NCBI GenBank assembly: GCA_033764315.1
Contig: JANRJA010000127.1
Location: 1-25,401 of the forward strand
From: Oculatellaceae cyanobacterium bins.114
GTDB taxonomy: Bacteria > Cyanobacteriota > Cyanobacteriia > Elainellales > Elainellaceae
Reading direction: 5' to 3'
DNA length: 25,401 nt
Shown here: in pieces, positions 22,206 through 24,207 of the stretch
Numbering within the stretch: the stretch's first letter is position 1
Layout: each line of letters starts with the position of its first letter
Program-made: the position numbers and the translations under genes
Notes under the pieces: model-generated
Databases searched by the model: none
What the model saw: only the letters and a program-made list of their open reading frames with translations
What the model was told of the DNA's origin: nothing

Positions 22206-22592
22206 TCATGAACGCAAGGATGGAATGTGAGCTTGAGTCTCTTGCCACAGTTTGACTAGGACAAACTCAGTGCGATGACTCAAGGTCGCTACAAACACAC
22301 CCAATTCATTGGAATGTGAAGGGAGCCAAATGCCTTTGACACTGACTTCCAAATAGGATTCATCTGCGATCGCCACTTCCAACAAATCGCTGGATTCTTG
22401 CCGTGCAGCCCGTTCTAATGCATATAACTGGACTAGATGCGCGGGCAACAAAATAGAAGCACTGCCATGTTCCAGAACAACTCGCTGAGCCGTCCGCACT
22501 GACAAAATGACTCGCAGTGTAATCCATTCTTCTAATGATTGTGCAATTTGTTCTAAATGCACACTTGTTTCGGTATAGGTAAACTTCAACAT
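22206..22592 (-). CDS. alr0857-family cyanobacterial protein
   Basis: MLKFTYTE...LE....SLEEWI..RVILSVR...E...ASILLP...EVS.KG.W...GVFV..L..RTEF.L.KLW pattern recalled for this family. GAGGA SD. Confidence 0.75.
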   Translation of the reverse strand: MLKFTYTETSVHLEQIAQSLEEWITLRVILSVRTAQRVVLEHGSASILLPAHLVQLYALERAARQESSDLLEVAIADESYLEVSVKGIWLPSHSNELGVFVATLSHRTEFVLVKLWQETQAHIPSLRS

Positions 22593-22688
22593 ACTGGGAC
22601 TTCCTCAACGTTGAGATTGTGGCGTTCACACCAGAACTGTTTCAACACGACTTCACGACAACTTGGGTCAAATTCTGAAACTGACAGC

Positions 22689-22723
22689 AAAACCCCCGCT
22701 TCTGTGGGTTAGAAGCGGGGGTT
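22689..22723 (-). terminator. Terminator / attenuator hairpin between the leader ORF and the alr0857-like gene
   Basis: Minus strand: aacccccgcttct-aacccac-agaagcgggggtt-tt (13-bp perfect stem). Confidence 0.75.
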
Positions 22724-22754
22724 AAATAAAGAACTCCGTTGGAGTGCTTTTAAC

Positions 22755-23006
22755 CTATATCGGTACAGCAGTTCTAAACCTGTACCTCCCGCTCTGCCCT
22801 CTGACCACTGCCGATTTTTGCCCCAACAGGGTTTCATCAAACATGCCGCTGATCAGGATGGGGGACTCCGTGGAGCCAATGCGATCGCTAAACGAGCTAT
22901 AGCCACCACCAACAGCCGCAAGCAACGCATCAATCTGGCAATGGCGATCGCCAAGCCAATTGAGCGGTTGTTGGGCTAACTGTTGGGTGATTTGGTAACT
23001 CATCAT
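22755..23006 (-). CDS. Putative leader peptide / small protein (83 aa from ATG 23006)
   Basis: MMSYQITQQ...AAVGGGYSSF...LLGQKSAVVRGQSGRYRFRTAVPI*, positioned between a strong promoter and a terminator. Confidence 0.5.
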   Translation of the reverse strand: MMSYQITQQLAQQPLNWLGDRHCQIDALLAAVGGGYSSFSDRIGSTESPILISGMFDETLLGQKSAVVRGQSGRYRFRTAVPI

Positions 23007-23085
23007 CTGAACCCTAGCGTTTGCATTAACGGTCAACGGATGTCTCTCGTGGCAGACTCATCAGAGAATCTCGCGGGAGTAACAC

Positions 23086-23132
23086 TTGCATCTAGCTGTC
23101 AACATACTACACTTGTATTACGAAAGTGTCCA
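23086..23132. promoter_or_regulatory. Overlapping divergent sigma70-type promoters with a palindromic operator (putative TrcR site)
   Basis: Minus strand: TGGACA(23132-23127)-N17-TAGTAT(23109-23104). Plus strand: TTGCAT(23086-23091)-N16-TACACT(23108-23113). The imperfect palindrome TACTACA-ct-TGTATTA (23105-23120) overlaps both -10 boxes. Confidence 0.65.
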
Positions 23133-23757: not shown

Positions 23758-24207
23758 ATGAATAATGTCACCCTTGAAATCGTTGCCTATTCTGAGGCAA
23801 TGATAGCCATCCAAAAGATTCGATGTGCCGTCTTTCAAATTGAACAATGTGTTGACCCAGACCTCGACTTTGACGGACAAGACCCTGAAGCCATTCATCT
23901 ATTGGCTTATGTAGAACATGAAGCGATTGGTACAGCCAGAATTCGATATTTAAGCGACTGTCTAGCAAAAATTGAACGCGTTGCGGTGATACCCACTTAT
24001 CGAGGACAAGGCATCGGTAAGCAAATCATGGACTATGCGATCGCGTTTCTGAGTCGTCAGAAGATTTCCGAAATAAAAATTAACGCTCAAGTCCATGCCA
24101 AAGCTTTCTATGAAAAGCTTGGTTTTCAGCAATATAGCGAAGAGTTTGATGAGGCAGGAATTCCACACATTGAAATGAGAATCAAAAATCCCGTTCCATT
24201 TCTTTAA
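23758..24207 (+). CDS. GNAT N-acetyltransferase (ElaA/YjcF-like)
   Basis: IR..VF..EQ, IGTAR, KIERVAV...YRGQGIG, AQVHAKAFYEKLGF and FDEAGIPHIEM. Confidence 0.92.
   Translation: MNNVTLEIVAYSEAMIAIQKIRCAVFQIEQCVDPDLDFDGQDPEAIHLLAYVEHEAIGTARIRYLSDCLAKIERVAVIPTYRGQGIGKQIMDYAIAFLSRQKISEIKINAQVHAKAFYEKLGFQQYSEEFDEAGIPHIEMRIKNPVPFL

Follow-up and report, generated by a model that had tools for sequence, protein, structure and literature searches.

In attenuators of enterobacterial amino-acid operons (the trpL, hisL, pheL and leuL type), a leader is translated ahead of an intrinsic terminator that precedes the structural genes, a segment further upstream can pair with this terminator's 5' arm, and the leader stop codon is placed so that the position of the ribosome can decide which helix forms. 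At pyrBI of Escherichia coli, the outcome is set by the gap between ribosome and polymerase and not by an amino acid. The erm and cat leaders, and attenuators recognised by Term-seq, are further ribosome-mediated attenuators that respond to drugs. In Bacillus subtilis, leader translation that is disturbed by a drug sets the read-through of a terminator at bmrB-bmrCD (accessible part of PMC4191407). Here we describe a putative switch in cyanobacteria, an RNA element of about 105 nucleotides (nt) that lies between a trcR-like repressor gene and an alr0857-family gene in Oculatellaceae cyanobacterium bins.114 (assembly GCA_033764315.1). The DNA analysed, called the window throughout, is the whole stretch of 25,401 nt at positions 1 to 25,401 of contig JANRJA010000127.1. 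To our knowledge, cyanobacteria lack Rho, and apart from a few riboswitches almost no conditional terminators have been described in them.

The same genes are known from the TrcR regulon of Anabaena sp. PCC 7120 (PMC10272220; the accessible parts of this paper, with its Supplementary Data 2, are the source of all statements on Anabaena RNA and TrcR made here). The window shares with Anabaena the synteny of trcR, a small open reading frame (ORF), in some loci an HNH-nuclease gene (HNH), and alr0857, together with the operator and the divergent promoter region, and differs in having no HNH gene. The regulon is induced by translation inhibitors, a setting that the unit has in common with the drug-response attenuators. 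The three Anabaena genes, asr0855, alr0856 and alr0857, are presented as a possible operon, and the accessible parts of the paper do not mention a terminator, a function for the leader or an RNA structure (PMC10272220). A search of the full-text literature, whose coverage mostly leaves out subscription journals, found this paper as the only work on these genes and no leader-ORF attenuator from cyanobacteria. A preliminary description of the window had placed a promoter, an ORF of 83 amino acids (aa), a 13-bp hairpin, the segment agagcgggaggt, the hairpin ggtacag/ctgtacc and an alr0857-like gene at this locus, and we found all of them at the positions it gave. Its link to TrcR was borne out by the 18-nt motif ATACTACACTTGTATTAC, footprinted for Anabaena TrcR by Wang et al. 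(PMC10272220), which occurs with 0 mismatches at 23104-23121 (shuffles average 0.01 matches).

The element is built, in this order, of Box 1, hairpin A, hairpin 2 and a terminator-like hairpin (Table 1). We compared 45 oriented trcR-to-alr0857 regions from sampled genomes and 80 trcR loci from named records, in 77 of which alr0857 lies divergent from trcR within 2.2 kb. With the window's 136 nt as query, nhmmer found the element in 42 of 45 loci, and a profile search recovered it from 122 of 125 trcR-alr0857 loci, which represent 109 distinct sequences; the loci without it are L062, L133 and L139 (only 128 nt of region covered). The alignment used below, A2, holds 108 sequences, as the element of L074 could not be mapped to locus coordinates. 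Of 150 cyanobacterial genomes sampled evenly, 61 gave a match to a covariance model of the element; the highest number in one genome was five copies, and the window's own genome has two. At the loci hit by the model, 29 of 31 have a same-strand alr0857-family gene downstream, and 18 adjoin trcR. Rfam 15, searched at E up to 10, returned noise only and no family for the element. The ORF end, the terminator and the complementarity of Box 1, on whose conservation the preliminary description had made its proposal depend, are kept upstream of cyanobacterial alr0857 homologues, and such conservation across genomes shows that the features in the window did not arise by chance. Extra alr0857 copies of relatives (for example G002:C109:7157-7516 and G020:C104:184709-185122) often lie with a more distant TrcR-like gene, at 50-60% identity, and the whole trcR-alr0857 module seems to have been duplicated as a unit.

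Nearly all loci carry an ORF of highly variable length and sequence that ends ..SG(R/G)YRxRxxVP.. The frame that reads Box 1 as AGC-GGG-AGG is the longest upstream open frame in 117/122 loci, with a median of 71 codons versus 3 and 7.5; the other five are L044 and four loci whose Box 1 has a deletion of 1 nt. In 41/46 further divergent copies this frame is again the longest, and the other frames are open for 3-16 codons in both sets. The stop codon falls 9-15 codons past AGC in 106/122 loci and 3-5 codons past it in 12/122, and it always lies 22-55 nt ahead of the CCCCC of the terminator 5' arm (122 loci). The remainder of the leader is scarcely recognisable: without their last 15 residues, the leader bodies fall into 23 groups with no similarity detectable between groups. 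The leader ORF of the window is the positional counterpart of Anabaena asr0855, with no sequence similarity detectable beyond the genus; a protein search gave matches in the congener only (2/41 genomes, 65% identity), and searches of Pfam and NCBIfam found no family. An upstream TTG at 23036 would serve as an alternative start, giving 93 aa. Between window and congener, the ratio of nonsynonymous to synonymous substitution rates (dN/dS) is 0.92 for the leader body and 0.62 for the whole leader, compared with 0.07 for trcR and 0.15 for alr0857. Over a wider sample (400 pairs drawn from 2378, 352 usable), the leader median is 0.55, compared with 0.67 when these alignments are read out of frame.

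The end of the leader is conserved in a different manner. Third codon positions within helices are kept in 97-107 of 108 sequences and are invariant at Box 1. The bulged base of the Box 1 helix, which is a first codon position, is A in 58 sequences, G in 44, C in 5 and T in 1, encoding R, G, R or W, and V-P is preceded by T, P, S or A, encoded by NCT, whose CT belongs to the stem. In divergent copies, S-G is the sole survivor of the leader tail. The preliminary description had looked to the ORF C-terminus for conservation; the conservation is there, and a peptide signal is not, as the constraint on the RNA explains it. On the sequences compared, the conserved C-terminus is thus a by-product of RNA pairing, and what is conserved in the leader is probably its translation and the point at which translation ends, not a protein. 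The annotated small protein asr0855 probably has no protein function of its own. An arrest peptide of the erm, cat, SecM or TnaC type was considered and rejected, because the tail varies at exactly the unpaired bases and its variation thus tracks RNA pairing. A leader that senses an amino acid found no support either: there is no regulatory codon run, only helix codons are conserved, and the bodies are unrelated between genera.

Two alternative structures were predicted for the element. When the RNA was cut before the 3' arm of the terminator, the minimum-energy fold contained at least 7 pairs between Box 1 and the 5' arm in 99/108 loci. With the full element, the terminator (median -22.1 kcal/mol) displaced the Box 1 pairing in 96/108 loci. 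The predicted antiterminator helix and the terminator share the 5' arm and are mutually exclusive. In the window, the nascent RNA folds into a three-way junction whose arms are helix P1 (AGAGCGGG paired to CCCGCUUC), hairpin A and hairpin 2 in extended form, and 10 nt of the 3' arm suffice to flip the fold. RNAalifold, run with 48 nascent RNAs, likewise predicted P1 enclosing hairpin A. The preliminary description had taken hairpin A for a competitor of the antiterminator, a role that the folds weaken: hairpin A co-exists with a shorter Box 1 helix in the junction, and the pairs that overlap Box 1 are dispensable. These extra GGT:ACC pairs can form in about 77-89% of copies and are lost in divergent members, which retain hairpin A through compensatory changes. 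Co-existence in the junction, together with the loss of GGT:ACC, suggests that hairpin A is a junction partner rather than a competitor. Hairpin 2 is variable in sequence, with an A-rich 5' side and a T-rich 3' side, and by eye a hairpin of different sequence occupies its position at other loci, in a part of the alignment that is poor.

Base pairing was then compared across loci. In the window, Box 1 and the 5' arm can form a duplex of 10 Watson-Crick pairs and 1 G-U pair, with one A bulged out; its energy is -17.4 kcal/mol, and that of the two terminator arms -24.5. In 106/108 loci, no stretch of the 250 nt ahead of the 5' arm forms a better duplex with it than Box 1 (median -19.1 kcal/mol). 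The preliminary description had called Box 1 nearly identical to the 3' arm; its pairing with the 5' arm holds, and the identity is loose, the two differing by a single deletion and a single insertion. Taken together, hairpin A and the terminator are paired in 93.6% of cells over 108 sequences, with compensatory changes at 10/20 pairs and 0/500 shuffles as high; in a wider set fitted to the model (100 full copies and 9 partial rows), 16/20 pairs are compensatory, and again 0/500 shuffles came as high. Hairpin A alone is paired in 96.5% of cells, with 5/7 pairs compensatory in the 108 sequences and 7/7 in the wider set, and the terminator alone in 92-93%, with 5 to 9 of 13 pairs compensatory. 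Pairing of Box 1 with the 5' arm was possible in 87% of cells over 42 sequences and 85% over 108, the core pairs being kept in 93-100%. In the wider set it reached 89.0%, versus 49-60% with the partner slid, and 20 two-sided changes were seen versus 9.2 expected, with 0/500 shuffles as high on three measures; we take this as moderate support for P1, since relatedness among sequences can itself lift values above those of shuffles. Inspection by eye shows Box 1 and both terminator arms changing jointly in L007 and L222 (C to T, and G to A in both partners), and joint changes of the three strands also occur in L047/L055/L057 and in L212. The covariation for which the preliminary description had suggested a test is modest for the antiterminator.

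The arrangement downstream of the hairpin bears on where transcription of the next gene can start. An HNH gene follows the hairpin in 80/109 distinct loci, and the distance from the stem to its start codon is about 22-24 nt in 35 loci, 40-46 nt in 30 loci and 52-156 nt in 11 loci, with a negative value in 4. The 9 nt past the stem contain a median of 7.5 T with HNH and 6 without it, and in Nostocales the tail runs directly into AAGGAG. The close HNH start and the strong U tract leave no space for a separate promoter in most loci. The second copy in the window's genome, L144 (contig C117:810-3927), shows the full layout with no trcR adjoining it. It has two operator-like motifs, the TrcR motif being matched with 2 mismatches, and a 72-codon leader; the element tail TTATTTTTT is followed, with no space for a promoter, by GAGGAG and the ATG of an HNH gene (Pfam HNH_5), and the unit includes an alr0857 paralogue of 137 aa. 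A gene for a hybrid histidine kinase/response regulator lies upstream of L144 on the same strand. The window's family has lost the HNH gene, and its hairpin-alr0857 spacer measures 46-381 nt, 98 nt in the window. In L026, which also has no HNH, part of the 381-nt spacer consists of a run of repeats of the heptamer GATTGGT.

These computations reveal conservation of the element, an open frame with a fixed stop, constraint at the level of the RNA, two folds, and a lack of promoter space in most loci. We propose, with a probability of roughly 0.55, that the element is a ribosome-gated switch between terminator and antiterminator and forms a conserved cis-regulatory unit of cyanobacteria. We infer from the computations that transcription would terminate in vivo at the hairpin, that the ribosome would gate this event and that some physiological state would give read-through. 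A promoter repressed by TrcR would drive a translated leader of 60-165 codons whose amino-acid sequence hardly matters and whose last 13 or so codons would overlap the RNA of about 105 nt. Box 1, once transcribed, would pair with the 5' arm of the terminator and form, with hairpin A and hairpin 2, a three-way junction acting as antiterminator; after synthesis of the 3' arm, the more stable terminator hairpin could displace the junction. Box 1 and hairpin A lie inside the leader ORF and the stop codon lies between hairpin A and hairpin 2, so that the path of the ribosome overlaps the switch. A ribosome on Box 1, or one that stands at the stop and so opens hairpin A and the first part of hairpin 2, would prevent the junction and lead to termination. 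With no ribosome on Box 1 at the time the 5' arm emerges, the junction would form and transcription would read through into HNH, where present, and alr0857. Such a gate is compatible with all loci, including the 12/122 with an early stop. A bolder extension, which we regard as speculative and unlikely, would make the element a gauge of coupling: the long unconstrained leader would only load ribosomes, the relative position of ribosome and polymerase at Box 1 would set read-through, the HNH and alr0857 products would be the missing signalling link that lowers TrcR protein under elongation stress, and translation stress in cyanobacteria would be sensed primarily by the attenuator rather than by TrcR.

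Several observations weigh against the proposed gate. From the geometry of the ribosome footprint, a ribosome terminating at a stop 12-14 codons past AGC would not cover Box 1. Among 2000 shuffles of the 283 upstream nt that kept the dinucleotide composition, 114 gave an equally strong duplex, and the Box 1 pairing is therefore not significant from the window alone. Covariation of P1 did not exceed shuffles on the 108 sequences of A2, where its columns hardly vary and covariation is thin for that reason, and L204 and L221 each carry a P1 mismatch. The U tract is weak in the window (6/9, TTTTGCTGT) and in its family (median 6/9), the congener having ATTCTGCTG. The preliminary description had named a promoter of alr0857's own, downstream of the hairpin, as a finding that would speak against attenuation; most loci have no space for one, and the window's 98-nt spacer contains a promoter-like site, at chance level, so that a separate alr0857 promoter is possible there.

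A further objection comes from RNA in vivo, which was measured in Anabaena sp. PCC 7120. The values in Supplementary Data 2 (units not stated) are 23.4 in the wild type and 214.6 in the trcR mutant for asr0855 (252 nt), 97.1 and 701.5 for alr0856 (546 nt), and 46.8 and 397.1 for alr0857 (390 nt), that is, increases of 9.2, 7.2 and 8.5 fold without TrcR (PMC10272220). In unstressed Anabaena there is thus no excess of leader RNA over the downstream genes, which means that termination is not the default in unstressed cells. The polarity put forward in the preliminary description, in which normal translation leads to termination, predicts far less downstream RNA in unstressed cells, and the Anabaena data show no such deficit. 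The RNA sequencing (RNA-seq) data contradict this simple model unless leader translation is sparse or the terminated RNA is unstable. A canonical terminator without a drop in downstream RNA would require something that overrides it, which would fit an active antiterminator. Among the rows listed in the accessible part of the supplement to PMC8421152, a chloramphenicol RNA-seq study, none was found for these genes under old or new locus tags.

The same switch may work with the opposite polarity, in that a ribosome in step at the leader end favours the antiterminator and an untranslated or lagging leader terminates, making the element a translation check and a polarity device without Rho. Full read-through in normally translating Anabaena cells (PMC10272220) points this way, and so does the stop, which most loci have immediately 3' of hairpin A. 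Masking the nucleotides under a ribosome at the stop still left 7 or more Box 1 pairs in the nascent RNA of 94/108 loci, and 11 in the window. The naked nascent RNA, however, forms the junction too (99/108 loci), so that the absence of a ribosome would not by itself favour the terminator, and no upstream segment that would sequester Box 1 was found beyond shuffles (median z +0.62; 1/108 loci below -2). The extra pairs that melting of hairpin A would free are moreover lost in divergent members, and in the 12/122 loci that stop 3-5 codons past AGC a terminating ribosome would cover Box 1. We consider this polarity unlikely. Slightly less likely again is that the junction is the binding site of a trans-acting factor, either a small ligand or the HNH or Alr0857 product in feedback, which chooses the fold and leaves leader translation a secondary part. 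A compact three-way junction adjoining a terminator and the strict association with alr0857 would suit such a factor, as would the word GAAGCGGG, shared by Box 1 and the 3' arm and changing together in both, which could represent two copies of a protein site. The conservation of stem sequences with variable loops and joints is, however, the opposite of known aptamers, Rfam gave no match, and the open frame with its fixed stop in 117/122 loci would be left unexplained.

It is also conceivable, and in our view improbable, that the locus is an ordinary arrangement in which a gene for a small asr0855-like protein is followed by a leaky terminator or a stabilising hairpin, with no regulatory role for the complementarity of Box 1. 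Anabaena asr0855 is annotated as a protein gene, the three genes rise 7-9 fold together, RNA is not lower past the hairpin (PMC10272220), and the complementarity in the window alone is within chance. The leader body, on the other hand, is near-neutral and unrecognisable between genera, nucleotides rather than residues are conserved at the leader end, and conservation of the stem sequence across families, along with that of a matching box upstream, would not be expected of a plain terminator. We find it very improbable that the folds act on the finished mRNA, as a processing site, as a protective 5' hairpin for the HNH-alr0857 part or in the control of HNH translation. The downstream signal in Anabaena, equal to or above that of the leader (PMC10272220), would accord with such a device, and the hairpin lies 22-46 nt ahead of the HNH start in many loci; yet a hairpin with a tail of 7-8 T in 9 has the canonical form of an intrinsic terminator, and in the window it is 98 nt away from the alr0857 start codon.

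Table 1. Features of the trcR-alr0857 locus in the window; positions quoted in the text are likewise on the minus strand unless marked.
Feature	Position	Strand	Basis or detail
trcR-like ribbon-helix-helix repressor gene, 111 aa	23209..23544	+	ORF list; homology; operator upstream
TrcR operator	23104..23121	.	published 18-nt motif ATACTACACTTGTATTAC (PMC10272220), exact match
Promoter-like TGGACA-N17-TAGTAT, candidate for leader transcript	23104..23132	-	9/12 matches; same in congener
Leader ORF, 83 codons + stop, ends RGQSGRYRFRTAVPI	22755..23006	-	ATG 23006; stop TAG 22757-22755
Box 1, 5' strand of antiterminator helix P1, core AGCGGG	22784..22795	-	AGAGCGGGAGGT (= agagcgggaggt at 22795-22784)
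Hairpin A, GGTACAG (22786-22780), loop 11, CTGTACC (22768-22762)	22762..22786	-	-8.8 kcal/mol
Leader stop codon TAG, joint between hairpin A and hairpin 2	22755..22757	-	sequence
Hairpin 2, core ACTCC/GGAGT 22745-22733, extended by GGTTAAA/TTTAACC	22720..22755	-	fold and sequence
Terminator-like hairpin, 13 bp, arms AACCCCCGCTTCT (22723-22711), loop 7, AGAAGCGGGGGTT (22703-22691), tail TTTTGCTGT	22683..22723	-	-23.4 kcal/mol
Promoter-like TTGAAA-N18-CACAAT, candidate own promoter of alr0857	22616..22645	-	9/12 matches, chance level for region; same in congener
alr0857-family gene, 128 aa, putative regulated gene	22206..22592	-	NCBIfam NF045647

The trcR-like gene is divergent from the leader ORF. 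Its product shares 92% identity with that of the congener, 67-85% across the family and 75-83% with the named records from Nostoc, Calothrix and Phormidium; a Pfam search with the 111-aa protein gave no match. The -10 box of the leader promoter-like site falls inside the TrcR operator. A promoter scan of the window region found 4 sites versus 2.6 in shuffles. The operator heptamer CAAGTGT, at 23109-23115, recurs 27 nt downstream, in the 5' region of the leader, at 23082-23088 (minus strand, ..gatgCAAGTGTtact..) in the window and in the congener, and may be a second TrcR half-site. In two relatives of genus g41, L053 and L056, the trcR match contains one TAG each, with open frames of 125 and 181 aa, which could reflect a broken trcR or an alignment that overruns the stop. 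Directly 3' of trcR, in both window and congener, lies a GNAT acetyltransferase gene on the same strand (23758-24207, +), which may be co-transcribed with trcR; in Anabaena, the GNAT gene alr1537 heads the operon most strongly repressed by TrcR (PMC10272220). The terminator-like hairpin starts 31 nt past the leader stop, and TTGCTGT follows its stem; a general scan of the window region for terminator-like structures did not list it.

The alr0857-family protein matched NF045647 over positions 1-121 of 121 and scored 141 bits, the curated cut-off being 75; the family is present in 170/301 sampled genomes. Its structure model (AlphaFold; pLDDT, the predicted local distance difference test score, 89.4) has the order strand-strand-helix-strand-helix-three strands-helix, and its invariant residues include E21, R33, E82, G87, W89 and W116. 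Neither Pfam nor PADLOC gave a match for this protein, Foldseek with the model found none at E up to 0.001, and the VIA structure search returned generic alpha/beta rows with a best Z of 5.0.

Set beside the described systems, the proposed switch differs in several respects. Leaders of the trpL type have 14-30 codons, whereas those found here have 60-165 and no regulatory codon run; the antiterminator, which no region 1 sequesters, is here one of the arms of a three-way junction; the segment that would switch is part of the ORF and precedes the stop; and the signal would be translation in general and not one amino acid. At pyrBI the ribosome directly blocks the terminator hairpin. Here, in contrast, the stop lies 22-55 nt ahead of the terminator, which leaves Box 1 and the junction as the only route by which the ribosome could act. 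Unlike the drug-response attenuators, the unit has no conserved arrest peptide, has a dedicated repressor, TrcR, in addition, belongs to another phylum, and would regulate an HNH nuclease and the alr0857 protein rather than a resistance pump. Riboswitches have conserved joints and loops, freely covarying stems and a curated family; here the stems of P1 and the terminator are conserved in sequence and the loops vary. Attenuation by a leader ORF is thus known; new here are the long unconstrained leader, the junction-type antiterminator and the place in the TrcR regulon.

The unit occurs in about 40% of the sampled genomes and is tied to the only known translation-stress regulon of the phylum, for which the route from stress to TrcR is stated to be not understood (PMC10272220). 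As a cis-acting candidate, the element is concrete enough to be tested in Anabaena PCC 7120. Its design would be unusual, with a long leader kept merely as an open frame and a three-way junction as the antiterminator. That asr0855 is probably without a protein function of its own bears on the annotation of many genomes.

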